From a virus, in the IMG/VR virus record IMGVR_UViG_3300047281_000098, positions 1 through 64,000 of that record: a DNA stretch of 64,000 bases; one strand, written 5' to 3'. The position numbers were made by a program, and so were the translations under genes. A model generated the notes under the pieces. The model was not told the origin of the DNA, made no database searches, and saw only the letters and a program-made list of their open reading frames with translations. This document shows, in pieces, positions 60-38,155 of the stretch. How positions within the stretch are numbered: the stretch's first letter is position 1; the number at the start of each line of letters is the position of its first letter.

Positions 60-275
60 ATGTCAGCAGGAAAAAGTACAGGTCGGGTAAAATGGTTCAA
101 CGAAACTAAGGGTTTTGGATTTATTACTCCGGATAGCGGTGGAGTTGATTTGTTTGCCCATTACAGCGCAATTCAGACAAATGGTTTCAAAGTTTTGAAA
201 GAAAACCAAAGCGTTAGTTTTGATGTAGTCATGGGTGACAAAGGCGCACAAGCTGCGAATATCGCCCCTCTGTGA
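60..275 (+). CDS. cspA: cold shock protein
   Basis: [17 protein letters not shown] (RNP1), DLFAHYSAI (RNP2), 71 aa. Confidence 0.97.
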
Positions 276-289
276 TATAACGACTACCC

Positions 290-715
290 ATGTTCGAAAA
301 TAGAAAAGCCTTTTACGATTACGAAATACTCGAAGAGTACGAGTGTGGTATCATGCTCGAATCGTGGGAAGTAAAAGCCATTGCCAATAAAGTGTGCGCC
401 ATAGTAGGATCACACTGTAAGGTCCTGGACAGCGATGTATTTTTAATTGGAGCAAGTATGGGCTCATCCGAAAATGAGCAACAGCGTACTCGCAAGCTAT
501 TGCTACACCGTAAAGAAATCAATCGGCTCATTGGCAAAACAAGAGAAAAGGGCTTGACGCTGGTGCCTTTAAAGTTGTACAATAAGAATGGGAAGTTTAA
601 GTTATCAATTGGTGTTGCTCGTGGTAAGAAAGAATACGACAAGCGGGAAACTGATAAGAAGCGTGATATCGAATTAGAAACACGCAAGATTGTCAAAAGC
701 CAAAAGTTAGCATAA
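290..715 (+). CDS. smpB: SsrA-binding protein SmpB
   Basis: NRKAFYDY, RTRKLLLHRKEI, GLTLVPLKLY, ARGKKEYDKRE. Confidence 0.97.
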   Translation: MFENRKAFYDYEILEEYECGIMLESWEVKAIANKVCAIVGSHCKVLDSDVFLIGASMGSSENEQQRTRKLLLHRKEINRLIGKTREKGLTLVPLKLYNKNGKFKLSIGVARGKKEYDKRETDKKRDIELETRKIVKSQKLA

Positions 716-726
716 CGGAGAATATT

Positions 727-912
727 ATGGGAACTTGGGAATATAAAACTACGAGTGTACCAATTAGTACACAAATCATCGCCGGGCGTGAAGTCACGAT
801 TTTTTCGCTGCGCCAGGAAAAAGCCCGATATATACCAGATTGGAGACCAAATCCAATAACTAAGGTGTGGGAACAGGATCCGGACGATATTATGCCAGAA
901 AGTTTCGAATGA
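727..912 (+). CDS. hypothetical protein
   Basis: GGAG RBS; stop overlaps next start (ATGA). Confidence 0.65.
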   Translation: MGTWEYKTTSVPISTQIIAGREVTIFSLRQEKARYIPDWRPNPITKVWEQDPDDIMPESFE

Positions 913-1109
913 ACGAACGAATTAAAGAACTTGCTGAACAGTGTCATTGGGAAACTTACGGAGTCAATGGTGAGTTGTTAGCGTCTGGATTCGATGAAGA
1001 AAAGTTCGCCATGCTGGTGATTCAAGACTACGAAAACGATAAACGAGAAAGTCGCCGTGAAATTAAATCAGAGTTAGGTTACAGTCGCATCGGAAGGAAC
1101 AATGTATGA
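909..1109 (+). CDS. MNERI-family small protein (lacks GVEE end)
   Basis: MNERIKELAEQ...EKFAMLVIQ; start corrected to the ATGA overlap at 909. Confidence 0.8.
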   Translation: MNERIKELAEQCHWETYGVNGELLASGFDEEKFAMLVIQDYENDKRESRREIKSELGYSRIGRNNV

Positions 1110-1369
1110 ACGAACGAATCCAAGAACTTGCCGAGACAGCTTACCGAGATGTAGTCTGTAATCATACAATAGGTGATACTGTATCCAGAGAAGTAGTAGA
1201 TCAAAAGTTTGCCGAGTTGATTGTTCGGGAATGCGTAGGCATTGTAAACAAGATCGTTCCTCCTGGATATGAAGATTATCCTGACTACAGAGACCAGATT
1301 GAACAGTCTTTTCGTAGTGAGTGTGTGGCAGAGATTAAACAACATTTTGGGTTAAATGATGTGGAATGA
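1106..1369 (+). CDS. MNERI-family small protein
   Basis: MNERIQELAE...QKFAELIVREC...IKQHFG. Confidence 0.85.
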   Translation: MNERIQELAETAYRDVVCNHTIGDTVSREVVDQKFAELIVRECVGIVNKIVPPGYEDYPDYRDQIEQSFRSECVAEIKQHFGLNDVE

Positions 1370-1586
1370 AGACATAACACAACAAGAACAGAATGATCAG
1401 TATCTACAACAAAACCCACATATTGCAGCTGGGCTATGGGCAGAGTGGGTACGTGTAGTGTGTGGGTGGGACAAGATTGCCCACCCTACTACTAAAGAGT
1501 GGACCAAGTTAAAGGCAAAGTACTATCACGGCAAAGCGCCAATACACTCTGTTGGCGAATTAAAAAACCTGAGGATAAAAGAATGA
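1356..1586 (+). CDS. hypothetical protein
   Basis: ORF tiled between coupled neighbours. Confidence 0.65.
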   Translation: MMWNEDITQQEQNDQYLQQNPHIAAGLWAEWVRVVCGWDKIAHPTTKEWTKLKAKYYHGKAPIHSVGELKNLRIKE

Positions 1587-1864
1587 ACGAACGAATTAAA
1601 CAACTTGCCGCACAGGCCGGTGTGCTGGCGGATTTCGGCGAGGATATAAAAGTGGGTAGATGGGGTATTGGCGGGAGTTATCAGTCAATGGAAAAGTTCG
1701 CAGAGTTGATTGTGCAGGAATGTATGCGGCAGGTTGAAGAACAATACAAGCCTGTGCTGGAAGATACCGAAATGATGAAGGACACGCATTGGGATGGTTA
1801 TGTTCAGTGTGGTGTTGATAGCTATGTGGCCATTAGGGAACACTTTTTCGGAGAAGAAGAATGA
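1583..1864 (+). CDS. MNERI-family small protein
   Basis: MNERIKQLAAQAG...EKFAELIVQEC...EHFFGEEE; start corrected to 1583. Confidence 0.85.
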   Translation: MNERIKQLAAQAGVLADFGEDIKVGRWGIGGSYQSMEKFAELIVQECMRQVEEQYKPVLEDTEMMKDTHWDGYVQCGVDSYVAIREHFFGEEE

Positions 1865-2055
1865 CCGAAGAACATCCAACAGATGCTGCTGCTGAAACTA
1901 TATTTGAACTACAGCAAGAAAACATTCGCTTGCGTGGTCAAATAACATACCTGCAAGAAGAACTCTCTAGTGTAGAGGACGATTACGATAAAGCAGCAGA
2001 CATATACGAGAAGCGATTTGAAGAGCTTGAGCAATTAATCAGTAAAATTACATAA
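1861..2055 (+). CDS. hypothetical coiled-coil protein
   Basis: ATGA overlap, heptad-like acidic sequence. Confidence 0.7.
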   Translation: MTEEHPTDAAAETIFELQQENIRLRGQITYLQEELSSVEDDYDKAADIYEKRFEELEQLISKIT

Positions 2056-2061
2056 GGATTA

Positions 2062-2184
2062 ATGATGAAATTAGCCTGGCTTGTTTGGCGTGATGAAGAA
2101 ACAGAAACACCAGAGATTCACTTCTCTGAACCATACTATCACTTTAAGATAGTTGCTATTGTGTATGCGGAGATTGTACAATGA
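2062..2184 (+). CDS. 40-aa hypothetical protein (not in ORF track)
   Basis: AAGGA RBS, MMKLAWLVWRDEE...AEIVQ, stop overlaps next ATG. Confidence 0.6.
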   Translation: MMKLAWLVWRDEETETPEIHFSEPYYHFKIVAIVYAEIVQ

Positions 2185-2447
2185 ACGAACGAATTAAAGA
2201 ACTTGCGATAGAGGCTGAACTCTATGCTTGGGCAGAATATGAAAAATGGACTCCTACTGATGATTTTTCTGGAATTCCACATATCAGACACATCTGTAAC
2301 GAAAAGTTTGCCGAGTTGATTATTGCAGAATGTGCCAGTCTTTGCGAGGCACGAGCATGGGGGATGATTGAAAAAGGTTTCCCCGGGCACGAAGCTGTCG
2401 AAGAGTGTAGTGACATTATTAAACAGCATTTCGGAGTTGAAGAATGA
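2181..2447 (+). CDS. MNERI-family small protein
   Basis: MNERIKELA...EKFAELIIAEC...IKQHFGVEE. Confidence 0.85.
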   Translation: MNERIKELAIEAELYAWAEYEKWTPTDDFSGIPHIRHICNEKFAELIIAECASLCEARAWGMIEKGFPGHEAVEECSDIIKQHFGVEE

Positions 2448-2677
2448 TATTAGAAGATGTAGGCCAGAACTTAAGGGAGTTGAAGATGAGCGTATTTAAG
2501 AATGAAACATTGGCAAAAATTGATGCCATGGTGCCAGCGCAAATGGGCAAGGTCAAGCAGGTCTTGTTGTTTACGCTGATTGATGAATTTATCAACGGTG
2601 GCTGCCAACACGAGGACGAGTTTATCAATAACCTGAAAGCATTTCTCGGAGTTGAAGAATGATATTAGAAGATGTAG
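2431..2677 (+). repeat. 32-bp exact direct repeat pair (2431-2462, 2646-2677)
   Basis: TCGGAGTTGAAGAATGATATTAGAAGATGTAG occurs twice, bracketing one gene. Confidence 0.95.
2444..2662 (+). CDS. hypothetical protein ending in GVEE
   Basis: MILEDV...FLGVEE, coupled on both sides. Confidence 0.75.
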   Translation: MILEDVGQNLRELKMSVFKNETLAKIDAMVPAQMGKVKQVLLFTLIDEFINGGCQHEDEFINNLKAFLGVEE

Positions 2678-2856
2678 AGCATATTTTTAAACCGCAGATT
2701 GATGAAGGTACAGACAAATTATACTTTATGTTAATTGATGGTGAACACAAGATGATTGAACGCCACGACGCAAATGATCTGGCAACGCTGCTACCTATGT
2801 TAGATGCGTTTCAATATATTGACACAGTAGAACGTATACCAAGATTTAGTAAATAA
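2659..2856 (+). CDS. hypothetical protein
   Basis: MILEDV start shared with previous gene. Confidence 0.75.
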   Translation: MILEDVEHIFKPQIDEGTDKLYFMLIDGEHKMIERHDANDLATLLPMLDAFQYIDTVERIPRFSK

Positions 2857-2860
2857 ACGC

Positions 2861-2894
2861 TTGACAAGCAAGAAGAATAAGTATATAATAAATA
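2861..2894 (+). promoter_or_regulatory. consensus sigma70 promoter with overlapping late-type TAAATA box, driving tmRNA
   Basis: TTGACA(2861)-17 nt-TATAAT(2884), TAAATA at 2889-2894. Confidence 0.85.
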
Positions 2895-2900
2895 CTTAAA

Positions 2901-3200
2901 CAGCGTAAAGTAGGGACTGAAAAATATTCAAGAACCCGGTTCGAATCCGGGCAGGTCCACCAGAAAGTATATCATTACATACGGTCTATATAATGACAGG
3001 TATACTTCCTAATGGGCCTGAACTGGTTCTCGATTGGGTATCAAGTATGTGTTCTATCGCTCGGCAATGTAGAAGCCGTTAGGATTGGGGTAACCCGGTC
3101 AAAGAAGCAAAACAAAAATAAATGCAAATGACGAAAGTTACGCATTAGCAGCCTAAAAACTGCTTAGGGTAGTTATACCTCGTAACAGAAAATAACATAA
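2901..3200 (+). ncRNA. ssrA: circularly permuted (two-piece) tmRNA; tag ANDESYALAA at 3124-3156
   Basis: T-arm CCCGG-TTCGAAT-CCGGG (2935-2951) and CAGGTCC-A-CCA (2952-2962) lie upstream of the acceptor 5' strand GGGCCTG (3014-3020) with the G3:U70 Ala determinant; tag ORF GCA AAT GAC GAA AGT TAC GCA TTA GCA GCC TAA; outer ends approximate. Confidence 0.95.
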
Positions 3201-3224
3201 AAAGGGTAATTAATTACCCTTTTT
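3199..3224. terminator. bidirectional intrinsic terminator after tmRNA
   Basis: perfect palindrome AAAAAGGGTAATTAATTACCCTTTTT. Confidence 0.85.
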
Positions 3225-3226
3225 AT

Positions 3227-3255
3227 TTGACTATCATCAGACGATGATATATAAT
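3227..3255 (+). promoter_or_regulatory. sigma70-type promoter
   Basis: TTGACT-17 nt-TATAAT. Confidence 0.75.
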
Positions 3256-3299
3256 AACTGAATGCTTGAGAAAGCATTTTTAACTAAAAGGAAAATAAT

Positions 3300-3743
3300 A
3301 TGAAAACTATCGTAATCGCATCGTTGATCGCATTGTCAGCAGTTACTGCCAGCGCAACTGAAATTGGTCTTACTACTACTCGTGACGGCGGGACATCCCG
3401 TGACGCATTTGGAGTTACAGTTGGACAAACATTCGGTAAGGTTGGCGTAACAGCTGGATTCGAACGCAATACCACTGGTGATGCTCAAGATCGCTACAGC
3501 GTAGTTGCCAGTACTGATCTTACTAAGTTTGGCCCAGTTACTGTGTCTGCTAAGACAGGCGCAGCATACTTGAACAACACCACTGGTGAAGATGGATATG
3601 CTCTTACTGTTGCTGTTGGAGCAAGTGTTCCAGTAACCAAGCAAGTTAGCTTTGTCGCCGAGTTGGGTCGTCAATACGGCCAAGCTCGTGTATCATCATT
3701 TGATGGTTCACGCATCACTGCTGGACTCAAGTACGCATTCTAA
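3300..3743 (+). CDS. small outer-membrane beta-barrel protein
   Basis: signal peptide (..AVTASA), amphipathic beta strands, C-terminal AGLKYAF Bam signal. Confidence 0.85.
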   Translation: MKTIVIASLIALSAVTASATEIGLTTTRDGGTSRDAFGVTVGQTFGKVGVTAGFERNTTGDAQDRYSVVASTDLTKFGPVTVSAKTGAAYLNNTTGEDGYALTVAVGASVPVTKQVSFVAELGRQYGQARVSSFDGSRITAGLKYAF

Positions 3744-3756
3744 ATTAATTTAGAGT

Positions 3757-3781
3757 AAAAAGGCTCTTCGGAGCCTTTTTT
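3757..3781 (+). terminator. intrinsic terminator
   Basis: AAAAAGGCTC-TTCG-GAGCCTTTTTT. Confidence 0.9.
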
Positions 3782-3789
3782 GCCGGCGA

Positions 3790-3818
3790 TTGACAATAAA
3801 TCCATTCTATGTTACAAT
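3790..3818 (+). promoter_or_regulatory. sigma70-type promoter, leaderless configuration
   Basis: TTGACA-17 nt-TACAAT, ATG 6 nt downstream. Confidence 0.8.
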
Positions 3819-3824
3819 ACAGAC

Positions 3825-4079
3825 ATGGAACTAAAAACTGCGACAGATTGGCAAAGCTTACATTCAGTATTGCGCAGCAAAATGAATGATGTAGGTTATA
3901 ACAGTGATTTACAGCGACTATTAAACAATATTACTGATATGGTGTCAGAGTTCAGTAAACTTGAAGTTGATGCCCGCAGAATACACAAAGATACTTCCCT
4001 AGTTGGCCCAAGAGAACAAATCAATCAAGCTATAAAACGCTTAGATCAGCTTTTGCTCATGGCCCTGTTGATGAAATGA
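3825..4079 (+). CDS. hypothetical protein
   Basis: start corrected to MELKTA at 3825, downstream of the promoter. Confidence 0.75.
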   Translation: MELKTATDWQSLHSVLRSKMNDVGYNSDLQRLLNNITDMVSEFSKLEVDARRIHKDTSLVGPREQINQAIKRLDQLLLMALLMK

Positions 4080-4084
4080 TTTTC

Positions 4085-4113
4085 TTGACATTAAACCCAG
4101 AATCTGCTATAAT
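4085..4113 (+). promoter_or_regulatory. sigma70-type promoter, leaderless configuration
   Basis: TTGACA-17 nt-TATAAT, ATG 6 nt downstream. Confidence 0.85.
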
Positions 4114-4119
4114 ACATAC

Positions 4120-4551
4120 ATGGAACTAGAAATACACATCAAATCTAAAGCGCGTCATGCGTTTATTAATGTAGCTGCTGAAGTGTATATACGCAAACTT
4201 AAACTTACGTCAAGTAAACATAAAGTGATCATCTACTCAGTACCTAATCTTTTAAAAGAAGAGGGCATCAATGGATTTGTATATCCACACAGTGACAAAG
4301 AGATATTTTTGGGTCTTGAAAGCAGATTAAGCGTTCCGGACATTTGTCTTACGCTTGCTCACGAAATGGTCCATGTTAAGCAATACGCAAAGGGACAGTT
4401 AAAACAGCGACCAAAGCGTTCTGGTAAAGTAGAACACATATGGATGGGAAAAGTCAACAAAGAATCGTACTACGACTGTCCTTGGGAGCTTGAAGCATTC
4501 AGTCGTGAACGTGTGTTGGCCAATGAGATTGTAAAGATTTTAACAGCTTGA
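4120..4551 (+). CDS. HEXXH zinc metallopeptidase-like protein
   Basis: TLAHEMVHVKQY and YYDCPWELEA. Confidence 0.8.
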   Translation: MELEIHIKSKARHAFINVAAEVYIRKLKLTSSKHKVIIYSVPNLLKEEGINGFVYPHSDKEIFLGLESRLSVPDICLTLAHEMVHVKQYAKGQLKQRPKRSGKVEHIWMGKVNKESYYDCPWELEAFSRERVLANEIVKILTA

Positions 4552-4570
4552 TATCTAAATATATAATATA

Positions 4571-5113
4571 ATGAGAAAATTTATCACTAGTGACTTACAT
4601 TTTGGTCACGCAAACATTATGAAGTTCTGTCCAGTGACCCGAGCAGGATTCACTGACATATCTGATATGGATGAAAAGATGATCCTTGAATGGAACAAAG
4701 AAGTGTCTGTTGAAGATGAAGTATTCATCCTAGGGGACGTGGCATTCTGTAACGCACAAAAAGCAACTGTAATCATGCGCCGCCTGAATGGCACTAAGAT
4801 TCTGATTGAGGGCAATCACGATGTGAAGAATTTGAACGACCCTGAATTTCGTGCTTGCTTCAAAGAGATTCACAAGTACCTGCGTTACAATCATAACGGT
4901 ACCATTGTATGTATGTTTCACTTTCCCATATGCGAGTGGGATCAAATGCACCGTGGCGCCGTTCATTTCTATGGTCACGTCCACGGAAACACGACCGGGC
5001 TAGAAAAGTATCGCGCCCGTGACGTGGCGTTTGATGCGACTGGGCGCGTAGTGTCTGATTTTGATGAAATGGTCAAAGACGCATTAACGGGCGAAATTAA
5101 AAGTCACCACTAA
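4571..5113 (+). CDS. calcineurin-like metallophosphoesterase
   Basis: SDLHFGH, LGD, GNHD, GHVH motifs. Confidence 0.93.
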   Translation: MRKFITSDLHFGHANIMKFCPVTRAGFTDISDMDEKMILEWNKEVSVEDEVFILGDVAFCNAQKATVIMRRLNGTKILIEGNHDVKNLNDPEFRACFKEIHKYLRYNHNGTIVCMFHFPICEWDQMHRGAVHFYGHVHGNTTGLEKYRARDVAFDATGRVVSDFDEMVKDALTGEIKSHH

Positions 5114-5120
5114 GGAAAAT

Positions 5121-5270
5121 ATGAAATTACTTGAAGATGAATACAACGGCGTTTATGTATGGGTTGAGGAGCTGAATGAGAATATCGAACTCAGTCCTCA
5201 TTTTGATTATGAAGAAGATGCCATTCAATGGCGCGATACAATGAAAGCTAAACTGGCAAATTTCAGTTGA
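5121..5270 (+). CDS. 49-aa hypothetical protein (not in ORF track)
   Basis: AAGGA RBS; MKLLEDEY...; TGA stop lies inside the next -35 box. Confidence 0.6.
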   Translation: MKLLEDEYNGVYVWVEELNENIELSPHFDYEEDAIQWRDTMKAKLANFS

Positions 5271-5295
5271 CATTTAATCCGAATTCTGCTATAAT
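5267..5295 (+). promoter_or_regulatory. repeated early promoter element
   Basis: TTGACA-17 nt-TATAAT; near copy of the element at 37864. Confidence 0.88.
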
Positions 5296-5325
5296 ATACA
5301 CATACAACAATAAATAGGACTTAGT

Positions 5326-5475
5326 ATGGTAACAGTAGAATATGACGATGAATCAAGAATGTGGCATGTGATTCAGTGGAATGATCGCCGTGGGCAGGTC
5401 CTTGCTAAATGTCATACTGAATCTATTGCCGAGCAGTTTGCTCAATCCTATCGCCTCAACGAAAGCCGCAAATGA
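5326..5475 (+). CDS. 49-aa hypothetical protein (not in ORF track)
   Basis: AGGA RBS; MVTVEYDD...; ATGA overlap with next gene. Confidence 0.6.
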   Translation: MVTVEYDDESRMWHVIQWNDRRGQVLAKCHTESIAEQFAQSYRLNESRK

Positions 5476-5675
5476 CAGAAATTGAAAAACTGGAGGCACG
5501 CATCGAGGCAGTAGATACAGCGATTGCCAATGTTAAAATGGCAATGGGTGTAGATCGTAAACTAAGTCACGACAAACATACTAATGGTCACTTTACAAAA
5601 GCACTAGACGAGCTAACAAGCATTCGTTTACAATTAAGCAGTCTCAAACTCAGAGTAGAAACAGTAGGTCGATAA
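5472..5675 (+). CDS. hypothetical protein
   Basis: tiled ORF. Confidence 0.7.
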   Translation: MTEIEKLEARIEAVDTAIANVKMAMGVDRKLSHDKHTNGHFTKALDELTSIRLQLSSLKLRVETVGR

Positions 5676-5676
5676 T

Positions 5677-5841
5677 ATGGACGAACGAATGAAAGAGCAA
5701 CTGTTAGCCCTTGCCTATGAACAGCAAGATGAGGTGTTTGGCTCCAGTGAGCGTGACGAGTTCGATTGTCTCATTGCCCTGATTGAAGACGGCACTATCA
5801 ACACCTTTGAAGAACTTGCTAAGTACGGAGTAGAAAAATGA
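5677..5841 (+). CDS. 54-aa protein with MNERI-like ends (not in ORF track)
   Basis: MDERMKEQ...YGVEK, ATGA overlap. Confidence 0.65.
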   Translation: MDERMKEQLLALAYEQQDEVFGSSERDEFDCLIALIEDGTINTFEELAKYGVEK

Positions 5842-6020
5842 ACGAACGAATTTGGGAAATTTACGGAGCATCCCTAGTGGGCACAGCCGATAATGGTGGT
5901 GATGTACTAGATCCTATAAAGTTCGCCGAGTTGATTGTGCGGGAATGTGCTGAGATAGCCGATCATGATCACGGTATGTCTGGTCAAGAACTATTGGAAC
6001 ATTTCGGAGTTGAAGAATGA
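5838..6020 (+). CDS. MNERI-family small protein
   Basis: MNERIW...KFAELIVREC...EHFGVEE. Confidence 0.85.
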   Translation: MNERIWEIYGASLVGTADNGGDVLDPIKFAELIVRECAEIADHDHGMSGQELLEHFGVEE

Positions 6021-6217
6021 ACGATGTAACTGGTAAATTGTTAGTAGTAGGTGACCAAATCGTCTTGATACCGCAGAACGGATACACGATGTCACTGTCA
6101 ATGGGTGTCATCATTGGGTTCACCCCAAAGAAAGTAAAGATCCAATTGACCGATAAGTGTTGGTCATATTCGGCAGATGAATGTTTGAAATTTCCAGAAC
6201 AGGTAGCAAAAGTATGA
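6017..6217 (+). CDS. small SH3/KOW-like hypothetical protein
   Basis: DVTGKLLVVGDQIV...GFTPKKVKI pattern. Confidence 0.7.
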   Translation: MNDVTGKLLVVGDQIVLIPQNGYTMSLSMGVIIGFTPKKVKIQLTDKCWSYSADECLKFPEQVAKV

Positions 6218-6402
6218 TCGAACGAATTAAACTCATGCCTAAAGCCATGCCGTGGGGCGTGAAACTAGCTGTAATATTTTTGCTGATATGCTATATTGCA
6301 TTGTTATTTTTGTGGCCAGAGGCATGGCTGATCCTTACTTTCATTATTGGTCTCGGCGCTGCCATTGATAGAATCATAGAATACAATGAGAGTGGACGTT
6401 AA
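6214..6402 (+). CDS. small membrane protein
   Basis: start corrected to MIERIK at 6214; two hydrophobic segments. Confidence 0.7.
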   Translation: MIERIKLMPKAMPWGVKLAVIFLLICYIALLFLWPEAWLILTFIIGLGAAIDRIIEYNESGR

Positions 6403-6403
6403 T

Positions 6404-6598
6404 ATGAACGAACGAATTAAAAAACTTGCTGACCAGGCTGGATACACAAAGGATATGTTTGGCATTGGGCATTGGGATATGCCAGAATGTCAAAAGTTCG
6501 CCGAGTTGATTGTAAGAGAATGTTTAGATATAGGTTACAAGCATAAGGCCTACGCATTGATGGGTGAGATTATGGAACATTTCGGAGTTGAAGAATGA
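6404..6598 (+). CDS. MNERI-family small protein
   Basis: MNERIKKLADQAG...QKFAELIVREC...EHFGVEE. Confidence 0.85.
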   Translation: MNERIKKLADQAGYTKDMFGIGHWDMPECQKFAELIVRECLDIGYKHKAYALMGEIMEHFGVEE

Positions 6599-7503
6599 AC
6601 AAAGATGAATTGAAAGAGTTTGTATTAGCTAACCCAAAGTTGGTGAACATGCGGTCGGCTGGCGAAGGCATCTATGTGCTAAAGTATTCCAAGCGTGTGT
6701 TCTACGATAACTTGTGGAATGACTACTTGGAAGAATGCCGCGGTACTATCGTGGACGCCGACTTCAATGTAGTGTCCCGTCCTTTCACTAAAATCTATAA
6801 CTACGGTGTGGAAGACAAGGCTCCTGTATTGTCTGACGACACTCCTGTAACTGCTTATCGTAAGGTAAACGGTTTCATGGTGGCAATGACATGGTACAAG
6901 GACGACATCCTGATCTCCACAACTGGCTCCACTGCTAACGACTATGTGGAGTATGCAAAAGAACTGATGGTAAAGCACCAGCCTTACGCTGATTGGCAAA
7001 TGGAACTGATTGCTACAAAAGGCATGACTCTGATGTTTGAATGCTGCCACCCAAGTGATCCACATATTGTACCAGAAGATGCAGGTATGTACTTCTTGGG
7101 TTACCGTGAAAACACTTGGGACTCCAAGGTAAAGATGTACGGTGTAAGTAAGTCCAAATGGGCACGTGACTATGCCATGAGCCACCTAAAGTGCGGATAT
7201 GGAGAATCTATCCAAACTACTGTTGGTGAGTTAGTAGCCGAGTCTAAGAAGGTTAAGCATGAAGGTTTTGTCTTCTACACAGAAGATGGCGTGTCTGCTA
7301 AGATCAAGAGCCCTTACTATCTCACTGCAAAGTGGGTGGCACGTAACCCACGTACCGACAAGCTGTTGACTAAAGAGTTCAAGGAACAAATTGACGAAGA
7401 GTACTACCCATTGCTGGAGCATATCCGTGCTAACATTGTCGAGTACACTGCAATGGATGAACAAGCTCGCCTTGCTTGGTGCAGAGAATTCTTCGCCAAA
7501 TAA
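6595..7503 (+). CDS. RNA ligase (T4 Rnl1-like)
   Basis: ECRG, RPFTKIYN, motif I KVNG, motif IV EGFV, motif V KIKS. Confidence 0.88.
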   Translation: MNKDELKEFVLANPKLVNMRSAGEGIYVLKYSKRVFYDNLWNDYLEECRGTIVDADFNVVSRPFTKIYNYGVEDKAPVLSDDTPVTAYRKVNGFMVAMTWYKDDILISTTGSTANDYVEYAKELMVKHQPYADWQMELIATKGMTLMFECCHPSDPHIVPEDAGMYFLGYRENTWDSKVKMYGVSKSKWARDYAMSHLKCGYGESIQTTVGELVAESKKVKHEGFVFYTEDGVSAKIKSPYYLTAKWVARNPRTDKLLTKEFKEQIDEEYYPLLEHIRANIVEYTAMDEQARLAWCREFFAK

Positions 7504-7504
7504 A

Positions 7505-7533
7505 TTGACAACAATACAATTTAATTGTATAAT
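7505..7533 (+). promoter_or_regulatory. sigma70-type promoter
   Basis: TTGACA-17 nt-TATAAT. Confidence 0.85.
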
Positions 7534-7564
7534 TAACGCATCAAAAACTTAACTAGGAGTTAAA

Positions 7565-8614
7565 ATGAAGTTTTCAAAACTTTTGCCAGCTGTACTAATT
7601 TCCAGTACTTTCATGGTAGCACTACCCAGCGTAGAAGCTTCCAGTTTCGGACGGAGCAGTAGTTCGAGTTCCAGCGGATCGCGGTCATCGTCGTCATCAA
7701 GCAAATCAAGTTCGGCGCCAAGTCGCCCTAGTGCTCCAGCGGCTGCCCCGGCGCCAAGTCGTCCAGGTGGCATCGGCAGCACATCAGGTTCGATGGGTGT
7801 TCGCAAAAGTGAAGTTACTTCACCAGTAGCACAAAAAGTTGAACAAGGCCGGCCATCGACTACAAATCCAAGCCCAGGTAATTCGGGTAGTGCTGGTCCA
7901 ACATATGGCTCTGCTAATCAACCTAACTACGGGCAACCTCCTGTAGTAATGCAGGGAAATAGTGGTCCTGGATTTGGTACCATCTTCGGCGGCGCGCTGG
8001 CAGGTAGCGTAGTCGGTAATATGATTAACGGCGGTGGCAGTCACGGTGGTGGTACTACTGTTATTAACAACGGTACACCGGGTGGTGGCGGCGCAGTAAG
8101 TAGCAACGTAGCAGGCTCTGGCCCTGCTGGCGGATTTGATAATGGACCAGGTGGTTCAAGTTTTTCTCAACCTAAAAAGGAATATACCGTGTGGAGTTTT
8201 ATCGCTGATGTGTTTGGTTTCGTAATTGTAATTGCTCTGCTACTCGGTGTTGCATGGCTGTTCTATAAAGGATTTAAAATGGTAAATGTTTATGTTAAGC
8301 GCGAACGCGGAGTTGGTCCTAGCCAACCATTCAATCCAACACAGAAGTTTTGGGAAATTCAAAAGGCGTTTGCGGCTGCTGATGTTGATAAACTGACAGT
8401 ATTGCTGGGCCCAGACCTGGTCGACGAAGCAACTGCGAATATTGCCCCTAACACTATTACACTCAGTAAAGTCAGTCACGAAGTAGTGCTGTCTAACCCG
8501 CGCGAGTTTAGCATTCACTATACATTCGAAGACAATGGCGAAAAAGTTGATCAAGTGTTCCATTATGAACTACACGAAGGTGCATGGAAGCTCAACGGTA
8601 TCGAGACTGTATAA
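7565..8614 (+). CDS. membrane protein with Ser/Gly-rich region and C-terminal Tim44-like domain
   Basis: signal peptide, low-complexity linker, GGALAGSVVG, TM helix, FWEIQKAF...WKLNGIE. Confidence 0.75.
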   Translation: MKFSKLLPAVLISSTFMVALPSVEASSFGRSSSSSSSGSRSSSSSSKSSSAPSRPSAPAAAPAPSRPGGIGSTSGSMGVRKSEVTSPVAQKVEQGRPSTTNPSPGNSGSAGPTYGSANQPNYGQPPVVMQGNSGPGFGTIFGGALAGSVVGNMINGGGSHGGGTTVINNGTPGGGGAVSSNVAGSGPAGGFDNGPGGSSFSQPKKEYTVWSFIADVFGFVIVIALLLGVAWLFYKGFKMVNVYVKRERGVGPSQPFNPTQKFWEIQKAFAAADVDKLTVLLGPDLVDEATANIAPNTITLSKVSHEVVLSNPREFSIHYTFEDNGEKVDQVFHYELHEGAWKLNGIETV

Positions 8615-8922
8615 TGAAAATGTATATCGCAATCAAAGAGTGGGTACCAACTGGACACGCCCTTAATGTTGCCGCCCACGCCGGTTTAATCGGATACCTA
8701 GCGTTCCAAGATCATGAATGGACTCAAGACTGGTTGAAGAATTCATTTAAGAAAGTTACCTGTATGGTAAGTGATGAAGAATTTGCTGAACTGAAGAAGG
8801 TTGACTACTGTAAAGTTATCACTGAAAGTAGACTTGATAATGATCAAGTGGGTATTGTATTTGCCCCGCGTAAGAAAGAAGATTGGCCCGAGATTATGTC
8901 AACACTACGGTTGTGGAAATGA
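8614..8922 (+). CDS. peptidyl-tRNA hydrolase, Pth2-like
   Basis: KMYIAIK...GHALNVAAHAGL...W...FKKVTC...FAPR; start corrected to 8614. Confidence 0.75.
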   Translation: MKMYIAIKEWVPTGHALNVAAHAGLIGYLAFQDHEWTQDWLKNSFKKVTCMVSDEEFAELKKVDYCKVITESRLDNDQVGIVFAPRKKEDWPEIMSTLRLWK

Positions 8923-9146
8923 ACAAACGAATTAAAAAACTTGCTGAACAGGCTGGGATGAACGCATTTGAACCAACAATGGACTACGACAGAAAAGAAA
9001 CTCATTGGACTGGCTGGGATGCCAACTTAGAAAAGTTCGCCAAGTTGATTGTTCAGGAGTGTGTTGATTTTACTAATACGTATAATGTTAATGGTAAAAG
9101 CATAGTTGGACAAGTAATCAAAGAACACTTTGGAGTTGAAGAATGA
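8919..9146 (+). CDS. MNERI-family small protein
   Basis: MNKRIKKLAEQAG...EKFAKLIVQEC...EHFGVEE. Confidence 0.85.
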   Translation: MNKRIKKLAEQAGMNAFEPTMDYDRKETHWTGWDANLEKFAKLIVQECVDFTNTYNVNGKSIVGQVIKEHFGVEE

Positions 9147-9478
9147 AGTGCAACAAATGCGGATACGATGACAACGGCACAAGCGACTTTGCGCACTTTT
9201 GCGGGACATTAGACCTAAAGAACATGACTAGCGGCCAATTTAAGATGGGTGGATGCCCACAATGTGGAAAGCAAGATTGTATTGCCCTCAGTTGCACACA
9301 GTCTGAAAGTCACTTACCAGTAGCAGAACAAAGTCTAGTTTATCGTTTACGTAAGCGGGCAGAGATTCGCAGACAAATTAGTTCACGTAAAAGTGTCCAA
9401 GAGGGCAAGAATGACCGTATTGCTGACCTCTTAGAGGAAGCAGCAAATGAAATTGACCGCTTGAACGAGTTAAACTAG
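9143..9478 (+). CDS. hypothetical protein with Cys-rich N-terminus
   Basis: CNKC, CPQC motifs then basic helix RLRKRAEIRRQI. Confidence 0.75.
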   Translation: MKCNKCGYDDNGTSDFAHFCGTLDLKNMTSGQFKMGGCPQCGKQDCIALSCTQSESHLPVAEQSLVYRLRKRAEIRRQISSRKSVQEGKNDRIADLLEEAANEIDRLNELN

Positions 9479-13275: not shown

Positions 13276-14571
13276 ATGACAACAGCAATCGCACCCAAAG
13301 CAGCTAAAAAAACAAAAAGTAAAAAGTACGAAAATCTAATCGGCCCCACTGATGCCAAGATTGACAATCAAGCACGTGAACGTTTGATCACTGCCCGAAT
13401 TGGACTGTTGCTTCGTCATTCCTTCTTTGGTAATCTTGCTACTCGCCTACAGCTTATCAATGCTGATAGCTGGTGTGGTACTGCTGCTACTGACGGCCAA
13501 AAGTTCTATTACAATTCACGCTTCATTATGCTTCTTAAAGTTAAGGAAGTAGAATTTCTCGTGGGCCACGAAGTGTTACACGTTGTGTATGATCACATGG
13601 GTCGAGTAGGTAATCGTGATCACCAGATGTGGAATATTGCTGATGACTATGCTGTCAATGCTGATTTGAAACGTCATAAAGTTGGACAGTTCATCACCAC
13701 AGTGCCTTGTTTGTACGAACAAAAATACGATGGCAAGCCCGCTGAAGAAATCTATGATGACTTGATGAAAAACGTACAGAAAATCAGTATTGATGATCTT
13801 CTGGACCAGATGATTGATGATCACATGGATGGTGAAGACGGTGAAGATGGTGACGGTGAAGATGGTGACGGCAAACCCGGACAAGGCAAAGGTCGTCCAC
13901 GTATGTCTGCTGAAGAAAAAGAACGTGTTCGCCAAGAAGTAAAGCAGGCAATTATTGCTGCTGCTCAAGGTGCTGAAGCTGGCACTATCCCTAAAGGCGT
14001 CGAGCGTTTGATTCGCAATACTACTGATCCGCAGATGCCATGGCGCGAACTGTTACAGGTAAATCTGACAAGTGCTATTCGTAATGACTATAGCTGGGGT
14101 CGCCCCAATCGTAGATCATGGCACATGGATGCTATCATGCCTGGCATGACTCCCGGTGAAGAAATTGATGTAACAGTTGCGATTGATATGTCAGGCAGTA
14201 TTAGCAATAAACAAGCATCAATGTTTCTAGGTGAGATTGCTGGAATGATGGGTTCATTCTCCGGCTACAAAGTTCATGTGTTTTGCTTTGATACCAAAAC
14301 TTACAATCCTGCTGACTTTACCAGCGAGAACATGGACCTCATTGACGAATACGAGCCAATGGGCGGTGGCGGTACTGACTTTGATTGTATTTTTGATTAT
14401 CTGAAAGAGAATGCCATTGATCCAAAGCGTCTGATTGTATTCACTGATGGATATCCATGTGGCTCTTGGGGTGATAAAGATTACTGCGACACTACTTGGA
14501 TCATTCACGGTGACAAGGATCCTCATCCCCCGTTTGGCACTTGGGCTATCTATGATGAACCGGCCAACTGA
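13276..14571 (+). CDS. metallopeptidase-vWA domain protein (DUF2201-like), MoxR partner
   Basis: TAATDG, HEVLH, MIDAS DMSGS, GGGGTDF, FTDG. Confidence 0.92.
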   Translation: MTTAIAPKAAKKTKSKKYENLIGPTDAKIDNQARERLITARIGLLLRHSFFGNLATRLQLINADSWCGTAATDGQKFYYNSRFIMLLKVKEVEFLVGHEVLHVVYDHMGRVGNRDHQMWNIADDYAVNADLKRHKVGQFITTVPCLYEQKYDGKPAEEIYDDLMKNVQKISIDDLLDQMIDDHMDGEDGEDGDGEDGDGKPGQGKGRPRMSAEEKERVRQEVKQAIIAAAQGAEAGTIPKGVERLIRNTTDPQMPWRELLQVNLTSAIRNDYSWGRPNRRSWHMDAIMPGMTPGEEIDVTVAIDMSGSISNKQASMFLGEIAGMMGSFSGYKVHVFCFDTKTYNPADFTSENMDLIDEYEPMGGGGTDFDCIFDYLKENAIDPKRLIVFTDGYPCGSWGDKDYCDTTWIIHGDKDPHPPFGTWAIYDEPAN

Positions 14572-34638: not shown

Positions 34639-35715
34639 ATGGCAAAACCATTTGACTTATCAAAGTTTCGCAAAGGCGTAACAAAAAGTATTGAAGGTCT
34701 CTCTATTGGATTCAACGATCCAACTGACTGGATCAGCACAGGAAACTATGCGCTCAACTATTTAATCAGCGGTAACTTCAATCACGGTGTACCACTTGGT
34801 AAGGTAACTGTATTCGCAGGCGAATCAGGTGCCGGCAAGTCTTACATCTGTTCCGGTAACTTGATTAAGAACGCACAAGATCAAGGCATCTATGTTATTC
34901 TGATTGACTCAGAAAACGCATTGGATGAGGCTTGGTTACACGCATTGGGTGTCAAGACCACAGACGATAAAATGTTGAAACTCAATATGGCTATGATTGA
35001 TGACGTGGCTCGTGTTATCAGTGACTTTGTTAAAGAATACAAAACTCTGCCAGCCGATGATCGTCCAAAGGTCATGTTCGTTATTGACTCACTTGGCATG
35101 TTGCTTACTCCTACTGATGTGAATCAGTTTGAAGCAGGTGAAATGAAGGGTGACATGGGTCGTAAGCCTAAGGCATTGACCTCTCTTGTTCGTAACTGTG
35201 TGAATATGTTCGGTAGTTTGAACATTGGTATGGTGTGTACTAATCACTCATACGCATCACAAGACCCGTACAATCCTGATGACAAAATCTCGGGCGGCGC
35301 TGGATTCATCTACGCAAGTTCTATCGTTGTAGCTATGAAGAAACTCAAGCTGAAAGAAGACGAAGATGGTTCTAAGGTATCAGAAGTTCTTGGTATTCGT
35401 GCTGGTTGTAAAATCATGAAGACTCGCTACGCAAAGCCCTTTGAAGATATTCAACTTCATATTCCATACTCAACTGGTATGAGCCCATACAGTGGATTCT
35501 TTGATCTGCTTGAGAAAAAGGGAATGATTGCCAAAGAAGGTAACCGTTACACTTACATTGATCTGAATGGTGTTGTTCATAAGTACTTCCGTAAGGAATG
35601 GAACAAGAACGCCAATGGCATTTTTGATCTGGTAATGCTGGAGTATGAAGAAAAGAATAAATCAGTAACTGCGTTGGCTACTGAGGATGAGGAAGAAGAA
35701 GGAGTAACTGAATGA
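34639..35715 (+). CDS. uvsX: RecA/UvsX recombinase
   Basis: GESGAGKS, IDSENA, VIDSLG, SGG, KTRY. Confidence 0.95.
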   Translation: MAKPFDLSKFRKGVTKSIEGLSIGFNDPTDWISTGNYALNYLISGNFNHGVPLGKVTVFAGESGAGKSYICSGNLIKNAQDQGIYVILIDSENALDEAWLHALGVKTTDDKMLKLNMAMIDDVARVISDFVKEYKTLPADDRPKVMFVIDSLGMLLTPTDVNQFEAGEMKGDMGRKPKALTSLVRNCVNMFGSLNIGMVCTNHSYASQDPYNPDDKISGGAGFIYASSIVVAMKKLKLKEDEDGSKVSEVLGIRAGCKIMKTRYAKPFEDIQLHIPYSTGMSPYSGFFDLLEKKGMIAKEGNRYTYIDLNGVVHKYFRKEWNKNANGIFDLVMLEYEEKNKSVTALATEDEEEEGVTE

Positions 35716-37294: not shown

Positions 37295-37531
37295 ATGAAA
37301 TCACTGAAACAGTCACAAAAAGTTCGCATTATCGTATCCGGTGTTGCGATTTACACGACAGTGAAACAGCTTCGCTTTGGTCTGTTTGGGTTCGCAAACC
37401 AAAATCTTGCTGCTAATCAAGCCTTGGATGCTCTTGAATCCATGCGTAATAGCAAGGGTTCAGCGGCTGACAGCACCGTCGGTCTTGCTGGAACTTGGTC
37501 ACAGCTTCAAATTCAATTGGATATTCTTTAA
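37295..37531 (+). CDS. hypothetical protein
   Basis: own promoter and AAGG RBS. Confidence 0.75.
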   Translation: MKSLKQSQKVRIIVSGVAIYTTVKQLRFGLFGFANQNLAANQALDALESMRNSKGSAADSTVGLAGTWSQLQIQLDIL

Positions 37532-37599
37532 ATTTCGGTTGACATTAAATCATTTTGGTGATATAATAGACTCATAGACAGCGACAAACAGGACTTAAA

Positions 37600-37845
37600 A
37601 TGAACGAACGCATTAAAGAACTCATTAATCTGAGCGGCATTGAAATTCGGAGAAACTATGATGAAAATGGGTCTACCCCTGCTGAATTACAAAAGTTCGC
37701 CGAGTTGATCGTGAGAGCGTGCGCCGATGCCGCAGACATGGCGTATGATGCCCGGTGTAGTGACGTAGGCGACTATGTTGGAGAGCAGCTTGGTTATGGT
37801 GAAGAACACGGCATCACTGCGTGGCGGCACAGAACCGAAGAATGA
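37600..37845 (+). CDS. MNERI-family small protein
   Basis: MNERIKELI...QKFAELIVRAC...TEE. Confidence 0.85.
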   Translation: MNERIKELINLSGIEIRRNYDENGSTPAELQKFAELIVRACADAADMAYDARCSDVGDYVGEQLGYGEEHGITAWRHRTEE

Positions 37846-37924
37846 ATTGTTGGCAAATTTCGGTTGACATTTAATCCGAAATCTGATATAATAGATACTT
37901 AGACAGCAACAAACAGGACTTAAA

Positions 37925-38155
37925 ATGAACATTGGCACTATCATCAAATCGTTTGACTTCCCCGGTAATTTGAACTGCTACATGGTTGGTACAGTGACTA
38001 AAGTAGAAGGTGACTTTATCACTTGTGATACAATCAAGCAAGTATTCGACGGTAAAGCATTGCCCAATGAACAATTCAACAAAGAATTCCGTACAGTAGC
38101 ACAAGGCTCTGGAATGTTTGATGCTACATTTCAACGCATCGTTGAACTGGCATAA
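37925..38155 (+). CDS. hypothetical protein
   Basis: own promoter, AGGA RBS. Confidence 0.75.
   Translation: MNIGTIIKSFDFPGNLNCYMVGTVTKVEGDFITCDTIKQVFDGKALPNEQFNKEFRTVAQGSGMFDATFQRIVELA

Follow-up and report, generated by a model that had tools for sequence, protein, structure and literature searches.

Small, probably early phage proteins that appear to exchange sub-gene cassettes at nucleotide-conserved blocks

The gp38 tail-fiber adhesins of T-even phages carry glycine-rich motifs between hypervariable segments (Tetart et al. 1998; Trojet et al. 2011, PMC3157838), and exchanges in or near these conserved motifs lead to chimeric proteins from a pool common to phages (PMC3157838). Another kind of modular shuffling is known from the hyperplastic regions of T4-type phages, which contain promoter-early stem-loop (PeSL) cassettes (Arbiol et al. 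2010, PMC2839356; Comeau et al. 2014, PMC4122927). Here we analyze a family of small proteins with three conserved blocks and two variable inserts that is encoded in the viral record IMGVR_UViG_3300047281_000098 from IMG/VR. The sequence studied (the window) is the first 64 kb of this 105,264-base record, which as a whole is designated G000 and has a CheckV completeness of about 30%. The family belongs to neither the gp38 nor the PeSL type and works like both, by motif-mediated modular shuffling. We put the probability that these are small early proteins whose cassettes are exchanged at nucleotide-conserved blocks at roughly 0.8.

As in gp38, the conserved motifs form the structural core and bound the variable segments, and chimeras form at the motifs. 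Unlike gp38, to which the family has no sequence or fold relation (and no Pfam or PHROG match), these are probably early proteins of 60-93 aa that occur in 2-18 copies per genome and are not a virion adhesin; their genes lie behind sigma-70 early promoters and not in a tail module. There are also just two cassettes, the blocks are conserved at synonymous sites, and the last block is the ribosome-binding site of the next gene. Like the PeSL system, in which the shuffled genes are non-essential, short conserved expression motifs mediate modular shuffling of small early genes, and the window also has repeated consensus promoter cassettes, separate from the blocks. However, PeSL cassettes are intergenic promoter-terminator units that move whole genes, whereas here coding motifs inside one gene shuffle sub-gene cassettes, and the junction is translational (Shine-Dalgarno sequence plus ATGA) rather than transcriptional. 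Variable cassettes with short conserved DNA flanks are likewise swapped by homologous recombination in the Neisseria pilE/pilS minicassettes and in Borrelia vlsE, systems with a single expression site and silent donors that reside in the same genome. In contrast, the eight copies in the window are all complete open reading frames (ORFs) with a Shine-Dalgarno sequence or a coupled start, with no silent donors, and the donor pool appears to consist of other paralogs and other phages.

The eight copies, which the initial annotation placed at 909, 1106, 1583, 2181, 5838, 6404, 8919 and 37600, do share blocks of DNA at counts far above chance. The 18-mer of the N-terminal block (N-block), ATGAACGAACGAATTAAA, has 10 matches in the window at up to three mismatches where 0.08 are expected, the 21-mer of the middle block (mid-block) has seven where 0 are expected, and the 21-mer of the C-terminal block (C-block) has five where 0 are expected. 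Every block match lies on the plus strand and at the coordinates first reported. The ORFs (60-93 aa) can be aligned in these three blocks only, and the two intervening segments, insert 1 and insert 2, vary in sequence and length as had been claimed. Not all blocks are intact: the mid-block of 909 is diverged and its tail different, the C-blocks of 1106 and 1583 are diverged, and the tail of 37600 is extended.

A hidden Markov model applied to 80 IMG/VR loci and this genome found 323 family genes in 81 viral sources. From these locus genes and database hits we assembled 492 complete family proteins and split each into insert 1 and insert 2. Pairwise identities of the two inserts have a correlation of r = 0.05. 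Insert-1 identity reaches at least 0.7 in 6,648 pairs, and insert-2 identity is below 0.3 in 6,174 of these. Clustering yields 250 types of insert 1 and 293 of insert 2, which make up 432 combinations; of the 84 recurrent insert-2 types, 75 have at least two insert-1 partners, and 57 of the 58 recurrent insert-1 types have at least two insert-2 partners. Eight pairs of insert-1 types have at least two insert-2 types in common and thus represent eight four-gamete violations. The co-segregation of inserts that the initial annotation had named as speaking against shuffling is therefore not what the family shows.

The same discordance is seen in DNA. In 229 DNA pairs, protein identity is 70% or more in one cassette and 30% or less in the other; many of these pairs have a nucleotide identity of 95-100% in the common cassette and of 35-55%, the random level, in the other. 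Some discordant pairs lie inside one contig, such as the genes at 5982 and 8017 in L022 and those at 1582 and 2805 in L067. In linkage mapping, the identity that goes with insert 1 disappears between profile columns 36 and 40, that which goes with insert 2 sets in between columns 39 and 46, and no linkage to insert 1 is seen in the first seven codons. Comparison of family members thus places the putative crossovers in the blocks, where linkage decays.

Several apparent exchanges involve the window's own cassettes. Window positions 36.5-38.2 kb have a syntenic counterpart in contig L089, whose N-block at the 37600 locus is identical; the mid-block, insert 2, tail, next promoter and next gene are about 95% identical, and the two insert-1 segments are unrelated, with a length difference of 9 nt. 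Among database proteins, P0004 joins the insert 1 of 1583 to the insert 2 and tail of 37600, and P0079 has that 37600 insert 2 behind the insert-1 type of 8919. Based on L089, P0004 and P0079, at least four different insert-1 cassettes occur on the 37600-type second half. Similarly, P0239 carries the insert 2 of 2181 with a different insert 1, P0018 and P0006 carry the insert-2 type of 1106 with another insert 1, and P0143 carries the insert 1 of 1106 with another insert 2; like P0239 and P0143, P0148 combines one window cassette with a foreign partner. The insert-1 type of gene 1583 is joined to about 14 different insert-2 types. L089 also encodes an extra 77-aa gene with its own promoter (L089 positions 1120-1353, minus strand) just upstream of the 37600 ortholog, a whole-gene indel that adjoins the sub-gene swap.

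The data come entirely from short-read assemblies, in which the blocks form exact repeats of 20-40 nt, and mosaic genes could also arise if an assembler joined family genes at their common blocks. We consider this very unlikely. The swap between 37600 and L089 has about 95% identical syntenic DNA on both sides, so that two chimeric joins would be required to produce it; 26 cassette combinations are seen repeatedly, in proteins that are not identical; and an open frame is kept in all products. Moreover, shared cassettes are separated by many synonymous changes and hence were not copied from a single template. The k-mers used in final assembly steps also usually exceed the 20-40 nt length of the blocks.

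The inserts range from 8 to 49 aa (insert 1) and from 10 to 62 aa (insert 2), and their types are mutually unrelated in sequence. Within a cassette type, dN is about 0.06 and dS 0.9-1.36, giving a dN/dS of about 0.05. The cassettes thus look like discrete, old, conserved types under purifying selection and not like mutational hot spots. Of the proposed scaffold with two variable loops shuffled block to block, the mosaicism at the blocks is borne out, but the "hypervariable loops" are instead conserved cassette types. These properties also bear on whether a dedicated enzyme (a diversity-generating retroelement, a site-specific recombinase or a nuclease) acts on the blocks. The blocks are conserved like recognition sites, and the window encodes an HNH endonuclease of 431 aa (13276-14571; PHROG 1314, E 2e-108). 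However, unlike a diversity-generating retroelement, the family has inserts that are unrelated and unequal in length, with no equal-length repeat pair varying at adenines, and the cassettes are not adenine-mutated copies of a template. No match to a reverse transcriptase (PF00078) was found in the 105-kb record, which covers about 30% of the genome. Every copy is a direct and complete ORF, and no linked enzyme gene recurs beside the arrays in the loci that we read, which makes a dedicated enzyme highly unlikely.

The blocks are unusual in their codons. In this genome CGA accounts for 11% of Arg codons, GCC for 12% of Ala, GAG for 21% of Glu, TTG for 18% of Leu and GGA for 23% of Gly, and these rare codons appear at block positions in nearly all window copies. 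Across the 80 other contigs, Arg4 is CGA at a frequency of 0.87 (background 0.14), Ala39 is GCC at 0.78 (0.23), Leu41 is TTG at 0.87 (0.25) and Gly67 is GGA at 0.92 (0.21). The choice is specific to the position, with GAG at Glu40 (0.83) and GAA at Glu36 and Glu45, and holds in all GC tertiles (0.33-0.49). At Val43 the wobble base varies freely (T 106, G 97, C 33, A 21), indicating that enough time has passed for synonymous sites to saturate. Where the inserts of a pair cannot be aligned, identical residues use the same codon in 71% of cases in the blocks and in 45% outside them, and the fraction in the blocks is a plateau, constant across divergence. Gene pairs that share a cassette have a block dS of 0.36-0.8 and a cassette dS of 0.9-1.36, and random family pairs reach a plateau of 0.6 in block dS. 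Thus, the synonymous sites of the blocks do not diverge at the background rate, the other outcome that had been singled out as contrary to the proposal.

These data also address whether the copies are ordinary paralogs with fast-diverging loops, in which the DNA identity of the blocks reflects recent duplication or codon bias. Large phages often carry small paralogs in tandem, and the blocks coincide with helices that need conservation at the protein level. Nevertheless, the block codons are rare in the genome and are the same in 80 other contigs across a GC range of 0.33-0.49, the same-codon fraction levels off irrespective of divergence, shared cassettes have a dS of about 1 and blocks a lower one, and the cassettes assort independently. 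We regard ordinary paralogy as extremely improbable. Block identity is equal within and between contigs, so it does not come from local homogenization of paralogs, and concerted evolution within the genome was ruled out on the same comparison.

Alternatively, block conservation could reflect a signal in RNA or DNA, such as a regulator binding site, an RNase site or an mRNA structure, with recombination as a by-product. The constraint is site-specific (the Val43 wobble is free while its neighbors are fixed), the equal identity within and between contigs fits such a signal, the C-block is demonstrably a translation signal, and the blocks contain 5-7 bp stretches complementary to each other. However, complementarity of that extent is expected by chance among about 110 conserved bases, and covariation is weak or absent, the pair 44.3/66.3 having 37 A-C mismatches against 33 A-U. 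The blocks have no Rfam family match and no ORF in an alternative frame; codon-shuffled controls have as many stops in the five other frames as the real sequences do, which speaks against overlapping or antisense ORFs. RNA pairing between blocks was accordingly rejected as a candidate, given chance-level complementarity and no convincing covariation. We think a signal of this type rather unlikely as the overall explanation, and it would be compatible with cassette exchange, chiefly for the mid-block and N-block.

On population-genetic grounds, neutral mixing alone should not reduce block diversity. The synonymous constraint on the N-block and C-block may come from their role as translation signals and junctions, the N-block combining a translation start region with a junction. 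The mid-block is most likely kept by transmission bias, in that only cassettes with consensus flanks could recombine into the resident copies of other phages and so spread. More broadly, the blocks could be the ends of sub-gene mobile cassettes that spread in a pan-phage pool into any resident copy. In that case, large freshwater phages would have in common a natural library of three-helix binders, combinatorial at two sites, and selection would act on the blocks for transmissibility (evolvability) and not for protein or RNA function. We offer this extension tentatively and consider it doubtful.

The C-block is a junction in another sense as well. Among 282 full-length members, 209 (74%) end in an ATGA overlap, the final 20 nt contain GGAG in 216, and one identical 21-mer ending is common to 81. 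An overlapping downstream ORF of at least 40 aa is present in 182 of the 209 cases and is a family member in just 44; the 139 non-family downstream ORFs fall into 97 clusters. In the window, the ATGA overlap after a C-block starts the genes at 2444, 2659, 6017, 6595 and 9143, of which 6595 encodes an RNA ligase (PHROG 562, E 2e-53). The suggestion that the block ending in GVEE and the stop codon supplies GGAG and ATGA to unrelated downstream genes, including the RNA ligase, is thus upheld, and comparison across the family points to translational coupling through the C-block. The related idea of a mobile expression adaptor applies to part of the gene. The C-block is portable, lying outside the family at 38 of 230 sites (ends of ORFs with unrelated bodies, and short remnants), but the N-block is rarely found on unrelated ORFs (8 of 211 sites) and the mid-block never outside the family (0 of 216 sites).

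RNA ligase orthologs in the 80 other contigs have diverse upstream neighbors, with a family member upstream in only four. In many of them a phosphoesterase gene lies directly upstream, abutting or overlapping; the window phosphoesterase is encoded at 4571-5113. The region between it and the RNA ligase (5113-6595) spans about 1.5 kb and holds nine small genes with their own promoter. Since the two genes adjoin in many relatives, this region resembles a hyperplastic segment inserted between them. An identical stretch of 10 nt that codes for Ile-Lys-Glu is present in both the N-block and the C-block (profile columns 5-8 and 62-65), and short remnant ORFs that join N-like and C-block ends are seen in other loci. 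Exchange between the N-block and C-block could delete the interior of a gene.

All family genes of the window lie on the plus strand. The first (909-1109, 66 aa) has its N-block at 909-946, a diverged mid-block at 998-1027 and an alternative tail, and overlaps the next member by ATGA. A similar end to this tail (1050-1109, ...GYSRIG..NV) is found on unrelated ORFs that overlap RNA ligase orthologs in contigs L133 and L137, and it may be a second portable tail module. The member at 1106-1369 (87 aa) has an N-block at 1106-1143, a mid-block at 1203-1233 and a diverged C-block. In the longest member (1583-1864, 93 aa), the N-block (1583-1620) and mid-block (1692-1722) are followed by a C-block variant (1848-1864) whose ATGA starts the gene at 1861-2055. 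The member at 2181-2447 (88 aa) has all three blocks (2181-2218, 2302-2332 and 2427-2447), and its ATGA starts gene 2444.

Profile comparison confirmed that the genes at 2444, 5677 and 6214 hold just one or two of the blocks, as first proposed. Gene 2444 (2444-2662) is a partial carrier with an unrelated body and a C-block end (2642-2662), and only its last 12 residues are family-like. It is flanked by a perfect direct repeat of 32 nt (2431-2462 and 2646-2677) that consists of the C-block and the initial six codons of the next gene, so that genes 2444 and 2659 have the same start. This layout looks like a cassette insertion, or a deletion substrate. The gene at 5677-5841 is a degenerate relative in which an N-block with two mismatches and weak similarity in the N-terminal half precede a C-block variant; its ATGA starts gene 5838. 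The other partial carrier (6214-6402) joins an N-block matching at 17 of 18 nt to an unrelated predicted membrane protein, and its family similarity is confined to the first six codons.

The shortest member (5838-6020, 60 aa) lies between these two genes, with an N-block at 5838-5855, a mid-block at 5917-5947 and a C-block at 6000-6020 whose ATGA starts the gene at 6017-6217. The member at 6404-6598 (64 aa; N-block 6404-6441, mid-block 6492-6522) ends in a C-block (6578-6598) that gives the GGAG and ATGA of the RNA ligase gene (6595-7503). Further downstream, the member at 8919-9146 (75 aa) has blocks at 8919-8956, 9031-9061 and 9126-9146, and its ATGA starts the gene at 9143-9478. The eighth (37600-37845, 81 aa) has its own consensus promoter (37539-37567), an N-block at 37600-37624, a mid-block at 37691-37712 and an extended tail.

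A sigma-70 promoter matching the consensus at 12 of 12 positions (5267-5295, plus strand) heads the operon with 5677, 5838, 6214, 6404 and the RNA ligase gene, and similar consensus promoters are present at 7505 (operon with 8919) and at 37539. Because their operons follow these perfect sigma-70 consensus promoters, the family genes are probably expressed early in infection. Repeated sigma-70 promoters with conserved flanks and 5' leaders occur at 3790-3839, 4085-4134, 5267-5316, 37530-37600 and 37855-37925, and these recurring units resemble the promoter cassettes of T4-type hyperplastic regions.

With the family alignments, AlphaFold2 predicts a three-helix bundle (pLDDT 90 and pTM 0.75 for 6404; pLDDT 84 for 1583). 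The N-block (MNERIKELA) is predicted to form helix 1, the mid-block (KFAELIVREC) the start of helix 2 and the C-block (HFGVEE) the end of helix 3. Insert 1 would be a loop, in 1583 a beta-hairpin, and insert 2 the far end of the helix 2/3 hairpin. A wide VIA-align search gave a best Z of 5.1, a generic helical match only.

The family is very large and undescribed. Among 1.84 billion proteins, a profile of the eight window copies matches 7,690 representatives of 50%-identity clusters, 965 of them at E below 1e-10, and in the 90% library the same profile matches at least 7,966 proteins. At least two copies lie inside about 12 kb in 73 of the 81 viral sources, with a maximum of 13 in one source, and complete or near-complete genomes (160-374 kb) carry 2-18 copies in several clusters. 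No further copy was found in bases 64,001-105,264 of the present record. Matches in the ESM Atlas are solely to viral hypothetical clusters, and the family motif strings gave no match in the literature searched. A tblastn search of GenBank phages with two members returned nothing significant (best E 0.3, a Synechococcus phage), and the family is thus known from metagenomes alone.

The phage itself, an uncultured giant phage, has a large terminase 48-50% identical to those of jumbo phages, e.g., PA5oct and Phosso, and a megablast search with the first 10 kb of the window found no near-identical GenBank phage. One early region (60-3247) encodes a translation-rescue set that includes a cold-shock protein (60-275, PF00313), SmpB (290-715, PF01668, E 1e-43) and a tmRNA with its own consensus promoter at 2861. 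Rfam assigns the tmRNA to the beta-proteobacterial or permuted type, and ARAGORN predicts a permuted form with a tag ending in ...YALAA. The tmRNA type hints at a betaproteobacterial host.

We propose that homologous recombination with crossovers within the 20-40 nt blocks would move cassettes between paralogs and between phages. With crossovers inside the blocks, the two cassettes would assort almost freely. Each cassette position holds hundreds of discrete types. This could be general homologous recombination during mixed or self infection, with the phage's own RecA/UvsX-type recombinase (34639-35715, plus strand; PF00154, E 4.4e-12) as the presumed engine. The C-block doubles as a signal for the following gene, providing its Shine-Dalgarno site, the spacer and an overlapping ATGA start. 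The products may form a combinatorial set of small early binding proteins for host takeover or counter-defense.

Several observations weigh against this proposal. All exchange is deduced from assembled metagenome contigs. No two of the eight window copies have a cassette in common, and exchange is therefore shown relative to relatives and not between window copies. Search hits were ranked by likeness to the 6404 copy, so that its insert-1 type is over-represented among the 492 proteins. Pairs sharing both cassettes number 115 where about 19 are expected under independence, which suggests that exchange is frequent but not free, with residual linkage. Selection for an RNA- or DNA-level signal would yield the same synonymous pattern in the mid-block. 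As for function, the family proteins have no match in Pfam, PHROG, NCBIfam or PDB sequences, and Foldseek against the PDB found no solved fold relatives (E above 2).

Phages can thus shuffle parts of a single small gene at DNA blocks conserved at synonymous sites, on a scale of thousands of gene clusters, and one of these blocks is at once the C-terminus of a protein, a ribosome-binding site and the start of the next gene. The family adds abundant, unnamed early proteins to motif-mediated shuffling, previously seen with whole genes (PeSL) and one adhesin (gp38), and it provides a concrete, testable example of recombination-linked constraint on synonymous sites. If the proteins do bind targets for host takeover or counter-defense, phages would possess in the cassette pool an extensive natural library built on a 60-aa scaffold.

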